From a virus (Duplodnaviria; Caudoviricetes): 64,000 nt of DNA. Shown here piece after piece: positions 9 to 47,727 of this stretch. Made by a program: the position numbers and the translations under genes. Location: the IMG/VR virus record IMGVR_UViG_3300005805_000001, positions 23,332 to 87,331 of that record; one strand, given 5' to 3'. The notes beneath the pieces are model-generated. The model did no database searches. It was not told the DNA's origin and saw nothing but the letters and a program-made list of their open reading frames with translations. Within the stretch, counting starts at the first letter, position 1; each line of letters opens with the position of its first letter.

Positions 9-1283
9 ATGCGTGAAAAATTTAAGAAATCTAAACAATCAAATGATGGATTATGGTCTTCAGCAATCATGAATAAAATTGATTTTGACAAGAATAAAAA
101 GGAACAGCAGGAAATGCAAAAGGCATCCAATGCTTATGGAAGGTTCATGGCAAAATACGGAGGCACCATTGAAAAAATGTATGCCTGTGGTGGCAAGACT
201 TATGGATGTGGAGGCATGACAAAATATGATGATGGAGGAGGAACTCCGTCATATCCATTGAACATGACAGGTCCAAGGGATATCCTTCCACTTATGTTTA
301 CAGATCCATATGTAGTTCCGGTAAATAACAACATCGGACTTACTTCTTCTATGATCGGCAGTTCATTGCCCCAAGGAGGATTGCAGTTATCCTTACCTTC
401 ATCAGGTGCTCCTGCCCTTCCAGCTGATTGGAACAGTGGAATGCGTTCAGGCGTATTAACCGAACCACGTTTAAACACTCCGGCAATGGGAAGTTCATTA
501 CCTCAGGGTTGGCAGTTACAAAACCCTTCTGCAGATGACGGTTGGAAATTGGATGCCAATCTTTCTCCTGCACGTGTTGATTTATTTGATGGACCTATGA
601 CCCTTATGGAACCTTTAGGACCTACAGGTAGCCAAGCACCAAGAGGACCTGTTGGAGACAGTGCTCGAAAAACCGAAATGGTATCAAGAAGGGATCCCAG
701 TGATTATCTTGGACAACAATATGGAATGAACCCCAGTGTGCTTGGACAGATAGCCCCAATGCTTCCGGCCCTTGGATTGGGTTTGGAAGCCGCATTGTCA
801 AAACCTTATCAGGTAAAGGCAAGTGACTACATGGTAAATGAGCGTTTAAAACCTGAAAAGATCAGTCCTAATTACCGTCCGATATATGAAGCTGAAAACC
901 GGGCTGCTTATGACATTGCACAAATGGCTCCAGGTTCAGGAGGATATCTTGCAGGGCGCACTGCCTTGAATGCAAATACAAAAAAGGTAATAGCTGATTA
1001 TAAAAAAGCGTTGGAAGATGAATATGTAAAACAAAAACTTGGTGCTGACCAGTTTAACATTACCAAGGATTTGCAGAATGCGCAAACCAAGTTGGCCGTT
1101 GATCAGTTCAACGAACAAAACAGGGCGGCACGTCGTAACGCAATGCGTGAACAGTTTGGTAAGAATCTTCCTGCAGCGTTCTTTAACCAGCAATACAACA
1201 ACATGGGAATGCAGGCAATTCAAGCCCAATATCCTAACCAGCAATTCAACTGGGGTATCTTTGGAAAGTCAAAACCTGTTTAA
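9..1283 (+). CDS. virion cargo/ejection protein, probably 5'-truncated by the window edge
   Basis: 424-aa ORF whose frame is open back to the window edge. It has GG-ending short repeats (MYACGG, TYGCGG, KYDDGG) and a Gln/Asn-rich helical C-terminus, and lies upstream of the vRNAP as crAss-like cargo genes do. Confidence 0.6.
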   Translation: MREKFKKSKQSNDGLWSSAIMNKIDFDKNKKEQQEMQKASNAYGRFMAKYGGTIEKMYACGGKTYGCGGMTKYDDGGGTPSYPLNMTGPRDILPLMFTDPYVVPVNNNIGLTSSMIGSSLPQGGLQLSLPSSGAPALPADWNSGMRSGVLTEPRLNTPAMGSSLPQGWQLQNPSADDGWKLDANLSPARVDLFDGPMTLMEPLGPTGSQAPRGPVGDSARKTEMVSRRDPSDYLGQQYGMNPSVLGQIAPMLPALGLGLEAALSKPYQVKASDYMVNERLKPEKISPNYRPIYEAENRAAYDIAQMAPGSGGYLAGRTALNANTKKVIADYKKALEDEYVKQKLGADQFNITKDLQNAQTKLAVDQFNEQNRAARRNAMREQFGKNLPAAFFNQQYNNMGMQAIQAQYPNQQFNWGIFGKSKPV

Positions 1284-3400: not shown

Positions 3401-6400
3401 ATGGCGGATAGCAAACCTATTAACCCCGGAATAAGTTTTCAGGATTATGTACGATATACTGATCTTCGAAGGGACATTATTGCAGATCCTGTAAAAATAA
3501 AAGCTGAAAGTTCACAGTATGATGCGGGGTTCATATTACCCCAAGTCAACCCTGAACAGGCTTTAATGGACCATCGTGCAAATGCACAACCCTGGGAAGA
3601 CAAACTGGGTAATGGGTTGATGAACATGACTTCAAGCGCATTCACAGGTGCGCTTGAAAGTACCCTAGGACTTGTATATGGCGCAGGTGCGGCCCTTGCT
3701 TCAGGGGATGCTTCCAAATTCTATAACAACGAGTTTGGAAAAAGCATTGATGCATTTACCGAAGCGACACGTGAAAAATATCCGTTTTATTATTCAAAGG
3801 CGGAAGAGGATGCTTCTTTGCTAAGTTCACTTGGTACCGCTAATTTCTGGTATGACAAGGTTCTTGGAGGTGCGGGATATACGATAGGTTCAATGGTGAC
3901 AGGTATGGGTGCAGCCCGTGCATTCAACATTGGTAAGAACGCACGTCTTGCACAATTAAGTGCAGAGGCTTCCGCGGCTGAGACTGCAGGAAACCTTACG
4001 GCTGAGGCTGCAAAGTTTGCACGTTGGGACATGGGTAAGCAAGCTGCGCTTGGATTTACCATAGCGCACGGCGAGTCATCCATGGAAGCCCGTCAGACAT
4101 ACGAAGAGACTAAACAGAATTATGAGAAGTTGCGCAGTCTTGCACAGATGGATCCTTCCAATCCGGAGTATGCCGACTACCTTAATCTTTCAGACGAAAA
4201 GATAGAACAACTCGCATCTGATGCGGCTGATACCAATTATCTCATGAACCTTGCAGTCACAGGTCCTACCAACATGATGTTGCTTGGCAAATGGATCAAT
4301 CCCGGTAAACAGGCTGCAATAAGGACATACAATGAGATAGGCAAAAGGACTGCAGTGGACGGTGCTACCCAGTATTTTGACAAGGTCGTCACCCAGAAGG
4401 GCCGCGCCTTGCTTAATGTCGGAAGCAAGTTCATGAAGGGTTTTACCTTGGAAGGTTCACAGGAAGGACTGCAGTTCGCATCCAACAAAGCGGCTCAGGA
4501 ATTTGTAGAGCTACATGGTTTACAGGGACAGGACTGGTTTACTTCATTGACTACCGGTCTTGCGGAAGGATTGGGTGAAACACTTTCCACAAAGGAAGGT
4601 CTTGAAGCAATCCTTGTCGGAGGACTTGTCGGGGGACCTTTCGGTATGAGGGGAGCAGGTGCTGAACGCACTGCAAAGGATGCAAGGACCAAGATACTTG
4701 TGGACAAGTTGAACTCCGATCCTACGTTTGTACAAGCCAATCCACTTGTACAGAAGATGCTTGCATCGACCAATTCTGCAAACAATGCAGAAACATATTT
4801 GAAAAACGGTGACTTGTTCAATGCAAAAAACGCGGCTGACCAGTCACTAAACACATATATCAAAGGACAGATTGACGCAGGTACCACGGATTACTTTGTG
4901 GAACGACTTGAGTCAATCAAACAAATGGATCAGACGGAACGCGACAAGTTCTTTGGTCCGGGCACAACTCCTGCACAGGTTGACCAGGTGATAGACAAGG
5001 TCAGGAAACTTGAAGGTTTGTACAATTCCATTGAGACATTGTATGGAACTCCCGGTGGAACACCTGAACAAAAACAAAGAAACACAATGTTGCGTGAAAT
5101 GCTTTTCTTTTCTGCAAGCACCATCAAGGATGTTGAAGGACGGATGAGTAACATAGTGAAGGAACTTACTGCAATGGCTAATCCCCAGGTTGCTGCAATT
5201 ATTGCGGCACGTGAGATAGCGATCAATATGCAGAAAACCATTACACCTGAATCCGTACCGGCAGGAAAAGACTTTGAACAGTATCTTGCTGAAATGGAAG
5301 ACCAGGCGGTAAAAGGATACAATGCCCTTCTTACACAGTTTATAAAAGACAATCCTGTTGAAGCTTCGCAAACCACACAACTTTTTGCCGACCTTAACCA
5401 ATTGGATAAACGCAAACAGGAATTCATAAAGTATTACAATGAACTCAATGATCCTGAGAAAGCCGAAGCATTGCTGAAGAAGACGCAGGAAACACTTGAG
5501 AAGACCGGTGAAAGGCTTCAAATGGAAGCTGAAAGGGAAAAGGAAAAAAAGACCCAGGGAAGAACGGTTCTTCAGGATGTGGACACTTTCCTGCCTTTGA
5601 ACCCAGACAGGAAAAACGAGGTTACAAACAAAGGACAGGTTCTTGACATATCCAAGCTTTCAAACATACAGCTTGATGAAATGCAGAAGAACCTTCAACA
5701 GGAAGAAACACAGGGTACACAGGTTTTACCTGAACTGAAGGCCGCAATTGCAAAAGAGATAGAGTTCAGGACAACCACGGATCAAATACGTTTAGGTATA
5801 AAGGAAAGGCTTCTTGGAGCTGTTACACCTGAACAGGTTGACGACATAATTTCCCAGATAGCCAATGACGGTTCATTCAATGTGAATGCCCAGGAGATTG
5901 AGAAACTCAAGAAAAACCTGACAGAAGCCAATGAAGCCCGTATTGCACAAGAGGCCATTGCTGAAAACATGAAGAACAACTTCAAGGGTGTCAATGAGTT
6001 CTTTCATGTGTTTACCACTTCCGAAGAGGAAAAAAGACTTGTGGCACAGGTTACCTCAGACCCTGAACTCAAGAACAAAGTCTACTTCAAACTTTCCACC
6101 AATCCCAATCCAGGGACCATAAGTAACATAGGAAAGGCGGAAACAAACACCCTTAATCCGCGTCTGAAGAAGCAATCACCTAACATACTGATAGAGGTAT
6201 GGACAACCTTGCCTGACAATACGCAGGCAAGGATTGGAATGATGCCATGGTTCGGACAATATGTAAACAATGTAGGTAATCCGATAGACATACAGAACCT
6301 TACATTTGATGAATATGTAAACCTTTTCCTTCCCGGACTTGATAAGCAAAAAGCAGCGGAGTTCATTGCAAGTGATCCTTTGAAGTATGATCTTGAAGCA

Positions 6401-35924: not shown

Positions 35925-35930
35925 TCCTTG

Positions 35931-36018
35931 TAGTCAGGACAGGATTCGAACCTATATATATCGTTCCTCTTTTCTATGTTTTCTTGAGACGATAGCCGTA
36001 CCATTCAGCCACCTGACT
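35931..36018 (-). tRNA. tRNA-like gene with a 24-nt anticodon loop (Leu-CAA if a 17-nt insert is removed)
   Basis: Acceptor AGTCAGG/CCTGACT, D stem GCTG/CGGC, anticodon stem ATCGT/ACGAT, T-arm ATAGG-TTCGAAT-CCTGT, discriminator A. Confidence 0.7.
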
Positions 36019-40644: not shown

Positions 40645-41103
40645 TTATTTCATTGAAATGTCATTCTGCGACAATTGACGTGCCGCTGCAGACAATACAT
40701 TGTCATGCTGTACAAGAACATCAGGTGCTGTCAAGTCAAGTGTGAACTCGGTCTGACGGAAGATTGGCATACCATCCTTGTGCAGGATTTCACCGTCTTG
40801 TCCAGCGCGTTTTGGCTCCTGTCCATCATAGAATGGAACACCAGCCTGCTCCTTGATCACGATCTTACCCATGAATGTGGAGCCAATTGTAATGCCGTTG
40901 TTCTTTACCCACGAAGTCAAATCGGCGATTTTGCCCTTGATAAGGGTGCTGCGCTTACGGCTATTAAGCCATCCGCCTGCGCCAAATTGCACATCATCTG
41001 TGCTTTCAATACGGATAAAACCGTATTCAGGGTTGTTCTTGCTGATACCAATCAGTTCAGATGAATCATTCTTGCATGTGGTTACTTTAACTGTGTTGTT
41101 CAT
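40645..41103 (-). CDS. beta-rich phage protein, possible OB-fold/SSB-like
   Basis: 152 aa, followed by its own terminator; the fold is a guess. Confidence 0.45.
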   Translation of the reverse strand: MNNTVKVTTCKNDSSELIGISKNNPEYGFIRIESTDDVQFGAGGWLNSRKRSTLIKGKIADLTSWVKNNGITIGSTFMGKIVIKEQAGVPFYDGQEPKRAGQDGEILHKDGMPIFRQTEFTLDLTAPDVLVQHDNVLSAAARQLSQNDISMK

Positions 41104-41163
41104 GATACTTAAGTTTTTAAATTGTTTGAATTAATTAAAGAATTGATGAGTTAATGATACTGG

Positions 41164-41463
41164 TTAATTGTTGATTTCAAGGGCTTTGCATATCCCGTCA
41201 AGGAGTTTGTAGCATGCCCGTTGAAGTTCGAATTCCTTGCGTCTACGACGCATGATAAGTTCGTGTGCGGACTTGAGGTTGTCCTCACGACATTGTTTTT
41301 CAGCGTCCTCTTTGAATTTGAACGCGTCAAGCCATTTCTGTGTGCTATGGCCATACCATTCCTTGCGTGTATGTATACGTGCAAGGATCTTGGATTTATA
41401 CGTATTATTGATTTTGGCGAGCGGGACGCCATTCCACCGCATATACAGGAATTCATTTGACAT
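41164..41463 (-). CDS. hypothetical protein
   Basis: 99-aa ORF in operon order. Confidence 0.5.
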   Translation of the reverse strand: MSNEFLYMRWNGVPLAKINNTYKSKILARIHTRKEWYGHSTQKWLDAFKFKEDAEKQCREDNLKSAHELIMRRRRKEFELQRACYKLLDGICKALEINN

Positions 41464-41467
41464 AGGC

Positions 41468-41746
41468 TTAATAGATTAAACGTATGCCATCATTTGTGAT
41501 ACGGATCTCACGGATCTGTTTAGGCAGTTTACCCGTGATCACGTGCTTCTTGTTGACAAGTACGGGATTGGGTTGTGTCCTGTTCAGTTTATAATACATG
41601 AACTGACAGGCACCTGCAGTACGTCCGAGTGCCTTTGCAACACGGCGTAGGTTTGCCTTGGTTGGATTGTTGTTGATTGTCTCAAGCAGTGTCTGTGTGT
41701 CCTGCTTTGACCATCTCTTTCTTGTTGATTTCTTTGATTTGGACAT
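41468..41746 (-). CDS. Myb/SANT- or GcrA-like HTH protein
   Basis: RWSKQDTQTL...VAKALGRTAGACQFMYYKL. Confidence 0.5.
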   Translation of the reverse strand: MSKSKKSTRKRWSKQDTQTLLETINNNPTKANLRRVAKALGRTAGACQFMYYKLNRTQPNPVLVNKKHVITGKLPKQIREIRITNDGIRLIY

Positions 41747-41887
41747 GATTGGTTTGATTTAATGGTGAATTAATTGAAGTGTAAGTAGAAGAAAGGCATA
41801 TATTGCGTACCGATTATCTCAGCCACAGGATTGCCGTCATGATCACGTGGAACGGTATGTGACATTTCCACGAGCAACAGAAACTTG

Positions 41888-42172
41888 TTATTCATCGAAG
41901 TTGAGTTTTATCTGTCTAGGGTCATAAGGTTCGTCACTGTATGAAGTTGACTGTACAAGTCTTATTTCATAAGCGTATAATATGGAGCTGATAGTGGCTA
42001 TAAACCCGGCTATGAAACAACAGCCTTTGTATATCATTATCATTACGGCTTGGTGTGATATACCTGACAAGCCTGTGATGACGGCCGTAATGACCGTCAT
42101 GCACAGGAACATTGCCAGGAACACTCCAAACCAAAGAAGCGTCGTGAGTATGAATGCCTTTACAGTTTTCAT
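41888..42172 (-). CDS. small membrane protein
   Basis: Two long hydrophobic segments. Confidence 0.5.
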   Translation of the reverse strand: MKTVKAFILTTLLWFGVFLAMFLCMTVITAVITGLSGISHQAVMIMIYKGCCFIAGFIATISSILYAYEIRLVQSTSYSDEPYDPRQIKLNFDE

Positions 42173-42522
42173 TGCACCGATGTTGAATCGTTATACAAGA
42201 CTTGTGTCAATGAATCGAATTCACTGCGCACCATGCAGTCAAGTGCGAACGTGTCGCCTTCCTGTACATATACCACATAGGCAAGTGAATCCTGATCAAG
42301 GCTGAACTGTATTATGCCGTCCTTGCCTTCATCAAGTTCATAGTGATACACGTGTATTACTTCGTCTTCGGTAAAGACCTCATTGAGAAGGTATCCCAAT
42401 GTACCGGTGCTTAACACCATCAGTGTCAGCAGGCTAATGATTTTAATTTGTTCCTTCATGGTGTTTTTTACGTTTTTTGGAATGTGAATGTTGAGTGATT
42501 GTTGATTTACCGGGATGTGCAT
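42169..42522 (-). CDS. membrane-anchored protein
   Basis: One hydrophobic segment followed by an acidic domain; start probably at MKEQIK. Confidence 0.45.
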   Translation of the reverse strand: MHIPVNQQSLNIHIPKNVKNTMKEQIKIISLLTLMVLSTGTLGYLLNEVFTEDEVIHVYHYELDEGKDGIIQFSLDQDSLAYVVYVQEGDTFALDCMVRSEFDSLTQVLYNDSTSVQ

Positions 42523-42652
42523 ATCCCATGTTGCGTTTTACGCCATCCAACTTGTGTCGTTGGAAGTCAGGATCCATCAGGATATCCTGGATTGCCATAA
42601 GTTTAGGAGTGAGTTTCATTGATTAGGATTTAGGATTTGGTTCAAGTAAATG

Positions 42653-42679
42653 TAAAGGGAGTGCCTGTGTGACACTCCC
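42653..42679 (-). terminator. possible intrinsic terminator
   Basis: Minus strand GGGAGTG-(9 nt)-CACTCCC-TTT after the 42685 stop; short U-tract. Confidence 0.45.
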
Positions 42680-42684
42680 ATGAA

Positions 42685-42888
42685 TTATTTCTTCATCAGT
42701 TTTTCATAATCCTGGCATACCAATACGGCTGGAAACCAGTAAATGAACAGTGCAAAAAAGACATGTCCGTTGTGCCTCATGGCACTTACATAATCAATCT
42801 CCACAAAGAATGCAATGAAGACTGACATGAACAACCAGCTTACCAACACAGTGGTAATTGTGATCAGCATATACATGGTGTTCTTCAT
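42685..42888 (-). CDS. small membrane protein
   Basis: Two hydrophobic segments. Confidence 0.5.
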   Translation of the reverse strand: MKNTMYMLITITTVLVSWLFMSVFIAFFVEIDYVSAMRHNGHVFFALFIYWFPAVLVCQDYEKLMKK

Positions 42889-43169
42889 GCCTTGTCGTTT
42901 TTGGAATTGTCCGTAACACTTTTAGCCGTGATGTCAAGCATTACGCTTATCATGGCAACCATGCCTATTGTACCGAAGACAGTTGCAGTCTTCAAGTTGT
43001 CCGCATCAAGTGCAAACATGGCCAATGAGAGGCATATCATTGCGACAATGGCCTCTGTAGTACTGAATTTTTCTTTCATTTTGGTTTGGATTTGATTATT
43101 AATGAGTGAATTGTATCTGATTGAAACGGTTTGTGCCTCACCGTAAAGCCTATCCTGAATGAAGTCCAA
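42885..43169 (-). CDS. small membrane protein
   Basis: Two hydrophobic segments; start possibly at MKEKFS. Confidence 0.45.
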   Translation of the reverse strand: MDFIQDRLYGEAQTVSIRYNSLINNQIQTKMKEKFSTTEAIVAMICLSLAMFALDADNLKTATVFGTIGMVAMISVMLDITAKSVTDNSKNDKA

Positions 43170-43187
43170 GATATACAGTCCTTTATG

Positions 43188-43319
43188 AATACATTCAGCT
43201 GTAATACATGAGCAACCTTTTTGAAAGGGTTACATTAACATAGATATACCACTGCCACTTGTTAAAGGTGGAAGTCCTTATGTGGATTCACTATACATAT
43301 ATCACAACTGAAGTGCATT
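43188..43319 (-). repeat. conserved-stem hairpin unit A
   Basis: Arms 43188-43206 (AATACATTCAGCTGTAATA) and 43300-43319 (TATCACAACTGAAGTGCATT); three G-U pairs if the minus strand folds; 93-nt insert. Confidence 0.8.
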
Positions 43320-43326
43320 GTGCATA

Positions 43327-43403
43327 AATGCACCCAATTGCGATTAAACCACGCTTTACAGTACGGTGGTTTTGACTGAAACATATCACAATTGAAGTGC
43401 ATT
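43327..43403 (-). repeat. conserved-stem hairpin unit B
   Basis: Arms 43327-43344 and 43385-43403. Both arms carry the compensatory CAATTG variant; two G-U pairs on the minus strand; about 40-nt insert. Confidence 0.8.
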
Positions 43404-43468
43404 GTTACTAAAGGTGTACTTGTATTTCTACGGATTGTATTTCTTCCTCCAACCACCTTTATGTAAGG

Positions 43469-43563
43469 AATGCACTCAGTTGTAATAGATGTATTTCAAT
43501 ACAACATTATTGTTGTACTCCATACTCACATAGTATGGTTCTCCATTACAACTGAAGTGCGTT
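43469..43563 (-). repeat. conserved-stem hairpin unit C
   Basis: Arms AATGCACTCAGTTGTAAT (43469-43486) and ATTACAACTGAAGTGCGTT (43545-43563); 58-nt insert with two internal hairpins. Confidence 0.85.
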
Positions 43564-43815
43564 TTAACTAACAAGTTTATACAAAGTTTGAGGTCCGTTA
43601 TGACCACTTATTCGCATATCAACTTGTTCATATTTATGGTCAGGACCAAATACCTCATTCATTGTAAGGTCATGGTCTTCCCAAAAGGAACATCCCCAGC
43701 GTTCCGCTACCCCACCAATTTCACCATAATCAGTGATTTTTCCTGTTTCATCTGCTGGAAAAATGTAGGTTTCATTTGCTAGATAGCTTGTAGAGGCAAT
43801 AACGTAAGTTGTCAT
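43564..43815 (-). CDS. hypothetical protein (83 aa) whose stop abuts hairpin C
   Basis: MTTYVIAS...NETYIFPADETG; A-rich leader. Confidence 0.6.
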   Translation of the reverse strand: MTTYVIASTSYLANETYIFPADETGKITDYGEIGGVAERWGCSFWEDHDLTMNEVFGPDHKYEQVDMRISGHNGPQTLYKLVS

Positions 43816-44077
43816 TTTAATGAGTTTTTTTGGTTTGTGTTTTACACCTAAAACTTTAATCCATAAAGTAACCTTTCAGTATTTATGTTTTAACTACCAA
43901 CTCTTGATGCTATCTCTGTACTTGTAGTTATTAAAGAAACTGGTGTCCTCAACATCTTGGAAAGTTATTGAGTTTTTTATTGTAACTAGAATGGTATCAT
44001 CCCTTTTTACCATCAGTGCTATTTTAATGGGAACTCATGCTGCAGCAGGTAGCTCTATGCTAGTTACAATTATTATA

Positions 44078-44215
44078 AATGCACTCAGTTGTGATACAAG
44101 ACTTATTACAGAGCGTATATCCTTTTTATGCAGTGAGAGGCCTTTAGAGCCTGTGTACATAAAATATAATACGTTGTATCTTGCCAGCTTATATAGATCA
44201 CAACTGAAGTGCATT
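44078..44215 (-). repeat. conserved-stem hairpin unit D
   Basis: Arms AATGCACTCAGTTGTGAT (44078-44095) and ATCACAACTGAAGTGCATT (44197-44215), perfect apart from one bulge; 101-nt insert. Confidence 0.85.
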
Positions 44216-44586
44216 ATGTTACTAATCCCTCTTAGGATCATCAGAAGGTTGATGTTTCTTTTACGCACCATGGCCTACAAGCGGTGCAACCTTTTCCAAG
44301 GAAGTTAAAGAGTGTGTTTCATATGACAGTCTTAATTTGTTACACGCAAGTCACTAGCGTGGAATCAAGAACCTACCTAGTATAGGATTACCTGCAAATC
44401 AGTGCAAGTTTTACCTGTGAAGTTAACTAGGATGTCTAGAGATTAAAGGCAGGCTGACATATAACCTGTTGTTCCCTATGTGTTTACCAATATGTCTAGT
44501 GTGGCCATAGAGTCAAGCAAACTCTATTCATTTCTATCTGCAGATAGTTACCCCCTGTACCACTTGGGTTTGTTTGCATTATTGGT

Positions 44587-44726
44587 AATGCATTCAGTTG
44601 TAATACGAGGAGCTTTTGTGGAACAGGTCAAGCTTTAGCTGATCTTGCCTGTTTGATCCACCATTTTAATTGGCAGGGCTCCAATTCTGCTTTCGAGTTT
44701 TATTTGTATTACAACTGAAGTGCATT
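44587..44726 (-). repeat. conserved-stem hairpin unit E
   Basis: Arms AATGCATTCAGTTGTAATAC (44587-44606) and GTATTACAACTGAAGTGCATT (44706-44726), perfect apart from one bulge; 99-nt insert. Confidence 0.85.
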
Positions 44727-45072
44727 AGAAGATGTCTTCGTAAAACATTTTACGAATCTCTTCTCTTTCGGCTTTTGTGGTGGTTTGTATCTTACAATAA
44801 AATACATCACCATCTATATCTCCATGCCAACCTACATTCCAATGGGATGATACTTGTAAATAGTCCCATCCATCCGTACGGACAGTAATGCATTCTGTTG
44901 AACCATCTTTCATATATTCAACAGTATCTTTTGGTGTGTTCGGAGTAAGATGTTCAAAGAATTCCGACTGGCTGATTTCAACAATGTCTTTGTTGAAATT
45001 CTGGTAGCGTGTGTAAAGTTCTGATTTCTTCACGGTGCTTTGTTTTTGGTTTGAATGAACAATTGCGGGCAA
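44725..45072 (-). CDS. hypothetical protein whose stop overlaps hairpin E (true start probably GTG at VKKSEL)
   Basis: ORF in the track; an A-rich leader precedes the internal GTG. Confidence 0.5.
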   Translation of the reverse strand: MPAIVHSNQKQSTVKKSELYTRYQNFNKDIVEISQSEFFEHLTPNTPKDTVEYMKDGSTECITVRTDGWDYLQVSSHWNVGWHGDIDGDVFYCKIQTTTKAEREEIRKMFYEDIF

Positions 45073-45213
45073 ATGCTATATGATAAGCATAGCATTGGAA
45101 GGATCAAGGAGTAGTGTGTAACACTAAACCTTGCTGAGGAGACAACAACACACTACAGCACAGGAACTTATAGCCTGCACCGTAGTGTGTAACGCTCAAC
45201 CAAGTTACCAGGA

Positions 45214-45552
45214 TTAAATCCTGGTGCCACCACTGGCTAGGGTAAATACCCAGCCTATGATCTCATGTTGAACACATACAATGTTCTGCTTGTCTGCGGC
45301 TAAGTCGGCTTCTTTCAGTCCTTGTTTGATAAGACCTACTCTACCATCTTCTCCGTAGACACTGCCACGTTTTCCTACTTTTGAATCACGGAAGTCATAG
45401 GTGTCATCACCTGTTAATTCCTTCAACTTTGATAATGTTAATACTTTTGCCATTTTGGTTTGGGTTTTAGGCGTTAAGGCTCCGGGGTATCCGTCGCTCA
45501 ATTTTAAGCCGGGTGGGTATTTTTGGGTTGGCTCACTCCCTGACTTATGCAC
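45214..45552 (-). CDS. hypothetical protein, first gene of the minus block (true start probably MAKVLT)
   Basis: ORF in the track; A-rich leader before MAKVLT. Confidence 0.5.
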   Translation of the reverse strand: MHKSGSEPTQKYPPGLKLSDGYPGALTPKTQTKMAKVLTLSKLKELTGDDTYDFRDSKVGKRGSVYGEDGRVGLIKQGLKEADLAADKQNIVCVQHEIIGWVFTLASGGTRI

Positions 45553-45577
45553 AAAAAAATTTTAAAAAAAATTAATT

Positions 45578-45644
45578 TGCTATAGGGACTTATCAAAATC
45601 AAGGATTCCCATCCCTTATATTTGTATTGGCTGTATTATATTTG
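45578..45644 (+). promoter_or_regulatory. putative late promoter region: TGCTATAGG plus two Bacteroidota -7 boxes
   Basis: TGCTATAGG at 45578; TATATTTG at 45617 and 45637 match TAnnTTTG. Confidence 0.55.
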
Positions 45645-46075
45645 CAATCACAAGGCGTGCTTTAAAAAGTCCTCGGACTTTAGCATCAAAATGAAGCCCG
45701 TAAGCTTCATTTTTTAAAACAGGCCCGGTCCATGTACCACGGTTGGCGCACTTCCCGTAACGGCATGGATCCTCCTGAGGGTGATAATCCCCAAATAGGG
45801 GTACCTACCTGCAACGGAGATACTACTTCTTGACTGGAACCAAGGCTAAGGGTTGATAGAGATGCCTCCAGTATGACGGTAAAACCAGGGAACTGGTCAG
45901 ACGACTTGAAGGAAATCCGTTGATAAAGAAAAGGTTAAGGAAAAAATGAACATTTTTCCAAGGGCCTAAGTGCGTCTAATCCAATCTAAGCCAATAAGTT
46001 ACAAGAGAATCCCGATCTAAGTGTAGTCTTGGAGCGGGATAAGTGTATAAAAACGCGTTGTTTGAAATAATATAT

Positions 46076-46083
46076 TACCTTTG
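46076..46083 (+). promoter_or_regulatory. Bacteroidota -7 box upstream of the first + gene
   Basis: TACCTTTG 18 nt upstream of the ATG at 46102. Confidence 0.5.
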
Positions 46084-46101
46084 TAGGATTATTCTAAAGG
46101 T

Positions 46102-46452
46102 ATGTTGGTAGTAAAGACCCCCAGGAACAAACTGTTCCACGCTTACTTGACCTGGCTGAATCCTTTGCTCATGTTGAGCAAGGGTGAGCTGGACATATTG
46201 GCGGCTTTGCTTACCTTGCATTACAGCCATAGGAATTATCCGAAAGAGACTCTGGATCAGTTGCTTACATCTCCTGAGACATTGGAGGCGGTTAGGAAGA
46301 AGATCAAGATAAACTCGAAGATGTTCAATAAACTGCTTAACTCCTTGAAAGAGAAAGGATTGATCCTTGAGAAAGGCTTGAATCCCAGTCTGACAAGGTA
46401 TCCGAAGGATGGTAAGTTCAAGCTTTTTGTAGGTTTCCAGGTAGAAAAATGA
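46102..46452 (+). CDS. winged-helix-like hypothetical protein
   Basis: LSKGELDILAAL...FNKLLNSLKEKGLI; first gene of the late block. Confidence 0.5.
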   Translation: MLVVKTPRNKLFHAYLTWLNPLLMLSKGELDILAALLTLHYSHRNYPKETLDQLLTSPETLEAVRKKIKINSKMFNKLLNSLKEKGLILEKGLNPSLTRYPKDGKFKLFVGFQVEK

Positions 46453-46679
46453 AACTGGATCTCGAAAAGCTGCTGTCAGACGTTGCCTCCGAGAAAGGCA
46501 TATCCAGGTTTCATGTTGAAACAATTTACAGGAGTGTCTTTGAGATGGTCGCTGAGACAATGAGGGAAGGTAATGCTGATAACATATTGATTCCCAGGTT
46601 CGGGAAATTCATAGTACCCCGCAAGAAACTCGAAATAAAGGACTTGCAGAAATATAAAGAGAAATATGGCACTGAATAA
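46449..46679 (+). CDS. HU/IHF-like DNA-binding protein
   Basis: DVASEKGIS...VET....FE...E......ILIPRFGKF pattern. Confidence 0.75.
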   Translation: MKLDLEKLLSDVASEKGISRFHVETIYRSVFEMVAETMREGNADNILIPRFGKFIVPRKKLEIKDLQKYKEKYGTE

Positions 46680-47727
46680 AAGATTTAATGACATACAAAA
46701 GCTTTATGACAAGCTTGGATGGGACAATGCTGAGACATTGAAGGATGCAATGGGCAAGTCCCCCGACTACATGTATATCGCATTCCTTACACAAACGGGC
46801 ACTGATGCCCCTGTTGGGAATGTTCTGTACAATGACCTTGTTTTCGCAAGTCCCGTTTACTTCAGTTATGAGGGAACAGGGACTTACCGGATGTATTGCA
46901 ACCTGTTTAAACCAGGATACATGGAGGTTGAAATCCATGATGGGCAAGGAAGCACCTTTGTTGACAGTACCATCACAGCCACTGTTTATACAGGATATGT
47001 TGAATTAAAGGTTTTTACTTTTGGATTGTCCGACAACATACTTCAAAACACTCCTATAAAGATAAGGGTTTGGAGTAATGCAGGTGTCGAAGAGGCGTCT
47101 GTTGCCCCTACTCCGTTTGGATACAGGTATGCTATTGTGAATGATACGACTTGTTCGGCTTTTTCCGTTGGTGCATGTGATTGGACTGCTTCCGGAGGAT
47201 TGCTTAGTACTGCTTCAAATTGGGGTATGGAAATGGCGGCTTTTTATCCTGATGGAAACGCTATTATAATAGATAATTATTATGAACCAAGTTGTACTTT
47301 ATTGGCATCTTCGTATTTCCTTAAGACAATAGGTAATGTTGATCCAGGTGTCATGACACTTACTGATGCGAACTGTAATCCTGCTCCAGGTATCACATGG
47401 AATCTTATAACAGGATCTCTTAAGAACTATTCGGGAACTATTCCAACTGGTCCTGTTGGTTCTAACTCATGGAGAACTGTTACATTGCCAGGGGATAGCA
47501 TCGGTTTAGACGGTATGATTGCTGATATTAGTGATCCTACAGTATTAGCGGGATTACTTCAGAATTATTTTCAAGCCATCAATAATCCAACATGTACTGT
47601 TACAGCGACTGACCTTGGAGGAGGTAATTGGCAAATTGATGTTAACCAGATATACAGTAATACCACTGTAATAGAATTGGAAGCGTTTTTATCTATTGGC
47701 ACTTATTTACTTAACTTAGTACCATAA
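46666..47727 (+). CDS. putative structural protein, N-domain paralogous to 47740-48159
   Basis: YIAFLTQTGTDAP...LQNTPIKIRVW domain followed by an unrelated beta-rich region. Confidence 0.5.
   Translation: MALNKRFNDIQKLYDKLGWDNAETLKDAMGKSPDYMYIAFLTQTGTDAPVGNVLYNDLVFASPVYFSYEGTGTYRMYCNLFKPGYMEVEIHDGQGSTFVDSTITATVYTGYVELKVFTFGLSDNILQNTPIKIRVWSNAGVEEASVAPTPFGYRYAIVNDTTCSAFSVGACDWTASGGLLSTASNWGMEMAAFYPDGNAIIIDNYYEPSCTLLASSYFLKTIGNVDPGVMTLTDANCNPAPGITWNLITGSLKNYSGTIPTGPVGSNSWRTVTLPGDSIGLDGMIADISDPTVLAGLLQNYFQAINNPTCTVTATDLGGGNWQIDVNQIYSNTTVIELEAFLSIGTYLLNLVP

Follow-up and report, generated by a model that had tools for sequence, protein, structure and literature searches.

The early RNase III sites of phage T7 are hairpins of about 50–60 nt that have an internal loop but lack a variable insert, and the promoters of phage N4 fold on the template strand into stems of 5–7 bp with 3-nt loops. 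For the Crassvirales, which count many aquatic phages and the viruses most abundant in the human gut among their members, early gene expression is to our knowledge largely unknown, and we know of no early promoter or processing signals that have been defined. Among repeated intergenic stem-loops, the promoter-early stem-loops (PeSLs) are known from the T4-type phages RB49/phi1 (Arbiol et al., 2010; PMC2839356), and in the crAss-like phage phi14:2 long and abundant early non-coding RNAs have been reported, the g004–g005 and g005–g006 intergenic regions giving abundant early RNAs of unknown function (10.1101/2020.03.07.982082). Here, we analyze five hairpins (A–E) encoded on the minus strand at positions 43188–44726 of a 64,000-nucleotide stretch of viral DNA (hereafter the window), which covers bases 23332–87331 of a complete genome of 87,331 bp (IMG/VR record IMGVR_UViG_3300005805_000001). 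The phage is a deep-branching member of the Crassvirales, with a large terminase 34% identical to that of Cellulophaga phage phi14:2. The locus shows three conserved non-coding elements absent from the databases and literature searched, namely a three-way junction (H1-type) present in at least 120 contigs, of which the hairpins are a reduced form, a split element (P50) that ranges from aquatic to human-gut crAss-like phages, and a pseudoknotted leader RNA.

The ten arms, described as five inverted pairs in an original prediction made from the letters of the window, are all present at 43188–43319 (A), 43327–43403 (B), 43469–43563 (C), 44078–44215 (D), and 44587–44726 (E). Each hairpin folds with its arms as the closing stem (z-scores −4.0 to −7.7), and the shared stem is 18 bp long (18–21 bp in the folds), A/U-rich and endowed with one extra base in the 5′ arm. 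All five are simple, P2-less junction hairpins, with inserts of 95 nt (A), 40 nt (B), 58 nt including two sub-hairpins (C, z-score −7.7), 101 nt (D), and 103 nt (E), which corrects the range of 39–101 nt given previously to 40–103 nt. The 5′ arm pattern AATGCACTTCAGTTGTRAT has five matches in 64 kb versus 0.16 expected, and the 3′ arm pattern ATYACAACTGARTGCATT five versus 0.41 expected; no shuffle got to five for either of them, and the complete 87,331-bp genome holds no arm copies beyond the five hairpins. The compensatory changes noted earlier (TAAT/ATTA versus TGAT/ATCA, and CAATTG in both arms of B) are correct, as is the count of five sense-strand G-U pairs, three of them in A, versus a single sense-strand C-A mismatch, which lies in C; the wobble pairs thus favor the sense strand as the folded species, as had been proposed. 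The extra base is always confined to the 5′ arm, and its position slides as the 3′ arm varies (C7 or T8/T9, and C10 or A11 in relatives), while hairpin Q of the related contig L010 has no bulge at all. Hence, the bulge is not a fixed recognition feature. The array sits, as predicted, in the early small-gene block, where the order of modules is E-X-D-P50-ORF83-C-B-A (X being a non-coding RNA and ORF83 an open reading frame (ORF) of 83 aa). Within the window clade, stop codons adjoin the 5′ arm or overlap it, with the next ATG 36–113 nt past the 3′ arm; the 5′ arm of E contains the TAA stop of the upstream 115-aa ORF, and A sits 113 nt upstream of a 94-aa ORF. ARAGORN called no tRNA or tmRNA at the array, Rfam 15 gave no relevant match for the region at E up to 10, and no named element in Rfam, GenBank phages or the searchable literature matches the hairpins, in agreement with the original prediction.

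A search for the arms in IMG/VR, combined with a search with the neighboring protein, revealed the same type of hairpin in five related contigs (L007, L008, L010, L013, and L033), giving a total of 15 simple hairpins with about 11 unrelated inserts. In 14 hairpins from six related phages, 94.4% of the cells pair and 7 of the 18 pairs changed on both sides, which none of 500 shuffles equaled, and the non-Watson-Crick pairs of the simple hairpins comprise 8 sense-strand G-U versus 1 C-A. Covariation of the stem in homologous loci, as anticipated, is therefore present, and selection on the stem for pairing and also for sequence is supported. Outside these phages, a search of one genome for each of 185,579 prokaryote species with the arm 19-mer yielded two lone chance matches with no partner arm, and a metagenome scan turned up only two already known relatives.

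Judging from sequence comparison, the stem of the window hairpins corresponds to two helices, P1 and P3, of a three-way-junction motif that is widespread in uncultured crAss-like phages and that we designate H1-type (H1). Its 5′ part consists of AAUG, P1 (GCAC/GUGC), the junction CAYWA and a P2 hairpin with the near-invariant loop UUCCCAAGG, and its 3′ part of P3 (CAGUUGUAAU/AUUACAACUG) with a variable insert, an unpaired A and the tail AGAGGG; the tail could pair with CCC of the loop, forming a possible pseudoknot. The pattern TTCCCAAGGNNNNNCAGTTGTAAT matches at least 120 IMG/VR contigs, from which 115 distinct elements were parsed by regular expressions anchored on the conserved loop, so that divergent copies are missed in this count. 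Among the 115 elements, P1 takes five covarying forms (GCAC/GTGC, GTAC/GTAC, GCGT/ACGC, GCAT/ATGC, and GTAT/ATAC) and P2 at least 14 in which pairing is complete; loop and tail are almost invariant, and the P3 insert spans 10–312 nt (median 89). The minimal H1 (L168:2139-2193), in which the P3 insert is reduced to a UUAU loop, has 55 nt and is small enough for direct biochemical tests. When 11 copies were aligned, 98.1% of the cells paired and 9 pairs had changed on both sides (0 of 500 shuffles equal). Sense-strand G-U pairs outnumber A-C in the H1 helices by 33 to 5 cells; since many copies are phylogenetically related, such cell counts overstate independent events, and we therefore also give the distinct variants (15 versus 5).

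The arms common to the simple and the H1 forms read AATGCAC...CAGTTGTAAT / ATTACAACTGAGTGC. In the window clade, UU stands in place of the H1 junction and P2, and AUU, paired with the 5′ AAU, in place of the tail. As a result, P1 and P3 form one 18-bp helix, and the UU accounts for the one extra base facing the junction A. Moreover, what had been taken for cargo corresponds to the variable distal part of P3. One copy each in L007 and L013 carries a stem-loop, CTCAC TTCCCAAGG GTGAG, exactly at the bulge site, and these P2-bearing copies end in AGAGGG instead of ATT. P2-less copies also directly follow an H1 in L199 and L202, and may represent intermediate or parallel forms. As to location, 108 of the 115 H1 copies lie between genes and share the strand of the genes that flank them; the next start codon most often follows after 25–75 nt, and a hairpin with a T-run often precedes the element. 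In L213 and L151, H1 lies directly upstream of a non-coding module (X3′, see below) with no ORF, which makes a purely translational role unlikely. Rfam 15 yielded no relevant match in the H1 loci L123, L156, L161, and L168 (E up to 10) or in L010, L013, and L017 (E up to 1), H1 was not found in GenBank phage records or the searchable literature, and a search of phi14:2 for H1 or P50 gave nothing convincing. A tie of H1 to tRNA genes was rejected, as none is closer than about 1 kb as a rule, and so was a strict tie to P50, which occurs in only 16 of the 115 H1 loci.

Comparison of the relatives revealed that the arms delimit exchangeable units. Unit E (140 nt) is 94–96% identical in L007 and L010 with different flanks, and the homology stops at the arm ends; it is thus a discrete unit found in three different contexts. 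In L007, its insert has three transitions, all in predicted pairs and all giving sense-strand G-U. Of the 77 positions of hairpin B, 4 are changed in its L033 orthologue, among them stem positions where A-U replaces G-C and C-G replaces U-G, and the neighboring protein is 63% identical. At other orthologous sites the inserts are unrelated: in L013 the 5′ arm of D likewise follows X, yet the insert shows no relationship, and L007 has a full H1-type element at the position of D, whereas before the 94-aa ORF the homology of L013 to the window restarts at the 3′ arm of A, and the insert of the positional orthologue H3 is again unrelated. At both sites (D/H2/H1 after the X RNA, A/H3 before the 94-aa ORF) the flanks are 85–93% identical and the arms are shared. 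The order of modules is X-H1-E in L007 and H1-P50-X-H2-ORF-H3 in L013, and the synteny of the window with L007, L013, L010, and L033 breaks at the arms, the flanking ORFs being without family. The H1-type arms are, hence, points where relatives exchange modules.

Among the described elements that come close to this arrangement are the PeSLs. Both they and the hairpins reported here are repeated intergenic stem-loops among small unknown genes of a plastic early region, start at or near the upstream stop codon, and occupy junctions where relatives insert, delete or replace modules with no dedicated recombinase. PeSLs, however, combine a sigma-70-type promoter with a short G/C terminating stem, whereas no promoter consensus is enriched here; a scan with a sigma-70-type consensus, which leaves Bacteroidota-type promoters outside its coverage, found 15 promoter-like sites in 41000–47000 versus 16.4 in shuffles, none of them tied to the hairpins. 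Also unlike PeSLs, the hairpins have an 18-bp, A/U-rich, covarying stem that encloses 40–103 nt, a sense-strand wobble bias and an origin in a three-way junction whose loop is invariant. The early RNase III hairpins of T7 offer a second parallel, as they too form a set of related hairpins between the cistrons of an early polycistronic region and have no U-tract, and their stem of about two helical turns, comparable to the 18–21 bp found here, is interrupted by an unpaired base. The third helix and possible pseudoknot of H1 are absent from RNase III sites. Cleavage of the stems by RNase III is possible, and it would require a host enzyme, since the complete phage genome has no recognizable RNase III or dsRBD.

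Homology to H1, covariation, a bias of the wobble pairs toward the sense strand, location between genes and loss of synteny at the arms are established. From these we tentatively propose that the hairpins, being a lineage-specific, stripped-down H1, would serve as cis-acting punctuation of the early transcript and as a recombination linker, a reading to which we give slightly less than an even chance. The elements would act in cis on the early transcript, where the conserved P1–P3 helix may be recognized by a host or phage factor, which would cut the RNA at this point, leave a terminal structure that protects it, or do both. Such cutting or end protection would separate cistrons and non-coding RNAs from one another. 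The abundant early non-coding RNAs reported for phi14:2 offer a precedent. At the DNA level, the short homologies offered by the conserved arms could allow related phages to exchange inserts and neighboring modules, as proposed for PeSLs in T4-type phages (PMC2839356). Several observations weigh against this proposal. The stripped-down hairpins lack the P2 loop and the tail, where H1 is most conserved, and may differ from it in function, and the complete window genome holds no H1 copy. Three hairpins in tandem (C, B, and A) exceed the needs of punctuation. Moreover, the sequence conservation of P3 and the location after terminators, 25–75 nt before starts, also fit a promoter-like signal, and the G-T wobble bias fits RNA and non-template single-stranded DNA alike. 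Finally, our searches identified no candidate protein recognizing the elements.

The original prediction viewed each insert as a distinct functional small RNA and the shared stem merely as a handle for processing or for loading a protein, RNase III being one example. Part of this view holds, as the inserts of E (96–99%) and B (97.5%) are conserved far above their surroundings, the neighboring genes being much more diverged, and the changes in both keep the predicted pairs; all inserts fold well, and a stem of 18–21 bp is long enough for a double-strand-specific nuclease. On the other hand, the view of the stem as a free-standing handle made for different small RNAs is not supported. The stem is P1 plus P3 of the widespread H1, and the presumed cargo is a variable extension of P3 that varies from 312 down to 10 nt and shrinks to the UUAU loop of the minimal copy, hence is dispensable in the parent motif. 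In addition, close relatives carry unrelated inserts at orthologous sites, no Rfam family matches any insert, and the high identity of E and B could come from recent exchange through the arms. The comparison of the inserts with the phage genome and 1.3 Mb of related phage DNA, which had been suggested, detected no similar or complementary sequence; on this basis antisense or captured-spacer cargo was rejected. We consider the small-RNA scaffold unlikely. The hairpins also resemble the Y RNAs (including phage Y RNA clusters), which are likewise families of small structured RNAs with a conserved bulged terminal helix and variable distal parts; unlike in Y RNA systems, the complete phage genome has no recognizable TROVE/Ro60, the region has no Rfam Y RNA match (E up to 10), and helix sequence and junction differ.

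Alternatively, H1 and its stripped-down form might be structured promoters that, by analogy with N4, are read as single-stranded DNA by a virion RNA polymerase and start early units. The elements occur after terminator-like hairpins with T-runs and 25–75 nt before the starts of ORFs and of a non-coding RNA, they contain long conserved sequence blocks, and the early promoters of crAss-like phages are unknown. The parallel with N4 extends to conserved hairpins preceding the early genes of a phage that brings its own RNA polymerase into the cell, and the virion polymerase of phi14:2 was assayed on denatured DNA (10.1101/2020.03.07.982082). However, the wobble pairs favor the non-template (sense) strand, by 8:1 in the simple hairpins and 33:5 in H1, which is opposite to the template-strand hairpins of N4, and both stems and inserts are far larger than in these short structures, inserts of up to 312 nt being hard to accommodate. 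Furthermore, the window genome is without H1, and of the tandem hairpins C, B, and A, neither C nor B has a gene before the next hairpin. We hold a promoter to be decidedly unlikely. A similarly low likelihood is assigned to the idea that H1 constitutes a new functional RNA class punctuating crAss-like early transcripts, for instance a self-cleaving ribozyme or a protein- or ligand-binding switch, with the window hairpins as relics or minimal substrates. A hammerhead core was rejected, since the H1 junction strands of 5, 0–1, and 1 nt do not fit CUGANGA/GAAA.

That the hairpins are transcription terminators or attenuators closing early cistrons is very unlikely. They do come after stop codons, and in T4-type phages the stem-loops of PeSLs terminate transcription (PMC2839356). 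The earlier statement that no U-tract follows the stems holds for the window, where they are followed by no T-run of five or more, but not for the relatives, in which four hairpins have U-rich tails (e.g., GCAUUUUUCAUU and GCAUUUUCAUUU). Against termination speak the A/U-rich stems enclosing 40–103 nt, a terminator scan that did not call the hairpins, and the presence of separate canonical terminators directly upstream of many H1 copies; nor does termination explain the conservation of the H1 P2 loop and tail.

A DNA-level mobile or capture element (an attC-like site, a miniature inverted-repeat transposable element (MITE), or a REPIN) moved by a dedicated enzyme is most improbable: constant inverted-repeat arms around variable DNA, stop codons adjoining the arms, the occurrence of unit E in three contexts and the shuffled module order would suit it, but all copies have one orientation, the three E junctions show no target-site duplication or conserved insertion target, the arms are helices of a covarying RNA-like motif, and, save for two lone chance matches, the arm 19-mer is absent from the 185,579 species genomes. 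The complete genome has no recognizable tyrosine or serine recombinase (integrase or resolvase), Y1 transposase (Y1_Tnp) or reverse transcriptase, and Phage_integrase (PF00589) gave no match in it, while the control genomes all matched. Because these recombinase and transposase genes, as well as Ro60, are missing and the arms are absent from prokaryotic genomes, membership among integrons, MITEs, REPINs, and Y RNAs fails. In their general design the hairpins do resemble attC sites, which are imperfect inverted repeats of about 57–141 nt (77–140 nt here) with an extrahelical base on one arm and a variable center, lie directly after ORFs and fold as one strand. In attC, however, R″ (RYYYAAC) is 5′ and R′ (GTTRRRY) 3′, whereas here the 5′ arm contains GTTGT and the 3′ arm ACAAC, so the GTTG...CAAC order is the reverse of R″/R′; the extrahelical bases of attC are fixed, while here the extra base slides from position 7 to 11 and is absent in L010 Q. 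Unlike integron attC sites, moreover, the hairpins have no integrase, include tandem copies with no ORFs and have arms that belong to a larger conserved RNA-like motif. Repetitive extragenic palindromes (REP/REPIN) were rejected, as the phage has no Y1 transposase (RAYT) and the arm 19-mer is not repeated in species genomes, and MITEs because there is no target duplication in the three E contexts and the copies are clustered in one orientation; a match to either had been named beforehand as grounds for abandoning the original interpretation. A mimic of CRISPR repeats (GTTGTR...YACAAC) was rejected in view of a likeness of 4–8 nt, a spacing of 55–120 nt versus a 36-nt repeat, and the identity of these bases with H1 P3, and invertible segments in view of the short inserts and the single orientation of all copies.

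The second conserved element of the locus, P50, is split and lies at 43837–43978 on the minus strand, with its 5′ half at 43933–43978 and its 3′ half (AAAGTTTTAGGTGTAAAACAC) at 43837–43857. The 5′ half is near-invariant (AAAAAACTCAATAACTTTCCAAGAYRTTGAGGACACCAGTTTCT) and is followed by an insert of 10–200 nt, closed by a stem that covaries, and by the 3′ half (AGTTTTAGGTGTAAAAYRC). In the window, the insert is closed by CTTTAAT/ATTAAAG, and 21 nt further on begins the 83-aa ORF (43564–43815, minus strand), whose stop codon stands directly before hairpin C; searches of Pfam and PHROG gave no match for this ORF, and no function is assigned to it. In GenBank, 14 gut crAss-like phages carry the 5′ half at about 90% identity, and an exact 23-mer core occurs in 71 IMG/VR contigs. 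P50 is located just upstream of ORFs or non-coding RNAs and has no match in Rfam or the literature; an early promoter and a leader RNA of Crassvirales are candidate roles. Separately, about 8 of the 71 P50 loci have the element no more than ~200 nt from the end of the locus or contig, as do 9 of the 115 H1 loci (the loci concerned being L117, L125, L152, L166, L168, L126, L169, L173, and several H1 loci); two contigs stop inside the variable insert. This suggests either strain heterogeneity breaking assemblies or closeness to the genome end.

The third element, the non-coding RNA X, occupies 44216–44586 (minus strand) between E and D and consists of a 5′ pseudoknotted domain (~44437–44577) and a 3′ module (~44216–44436). 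X is 93% identical in L007 and L013 versus 77–83% for the flanking genes. The 5′ domain, an RNA of roughly 120 nt with covarying hairpins, is also found in L010, L015 (9147–9272), L016, and L017 (3540–3672), and it includes a covarying pairing with the loop of the 3′ hairpin (GACATAT/ATATGTC versus GACTAAT/ATTAGTC); a relaxed pattern for this domain returned mostly Gly-rich coding sequence. In L017, the 3′ hairpin is followed by a T-run, like an expression platform of the riboswitch type. The 3′ module (X3′) is a separate conserved non-coding unit, which stands alone after H1 in L213 (1660–1870, oriented) and L151 (3465–3594). No Rfam match was obtained for X, and its interpretation as a tRNA or tmRNA was rejected because it has no T-arm.

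Several minor features were seen in addition. Downstream of the X 5′ domain in L010 lies a tRNA-like sequence (543–635, minus strand), which scores 27 bits with the Rfam tRNA model (gathering score 29); a degenerate arm-like AATGCATTTTAGTT comes after it. In the window, ARAGORN reports a tRNA at 35930–36018 on the minus strand, with its type undetermined and its anticodon read as four bases (caag). In phi14:2 (L036, NC_021806.1), the non-coding gap g004–g006 at 4031–4502 (plus strand) is hit by the tmRNA model with 46 bits (gathering score 47, E 7e-16). The motif GGCTTTACGGTGAGGCACAAACCGTTTCAAT occurs upstream of the 94-aa ORF, at 43117–43147 of the window (minus strand), and is found at the same position in L013 and L033 and partly in L007. 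Between the 112-aa and 115-aa ORFs, at 45111–45206 of the window, two direct copies of GTAGTGTGTAACRCTMAACC are overlapped by a hairpin with imperfect pairing (ACACACTACAGCACAGG / CCTGCACCGTAGTGTGT).

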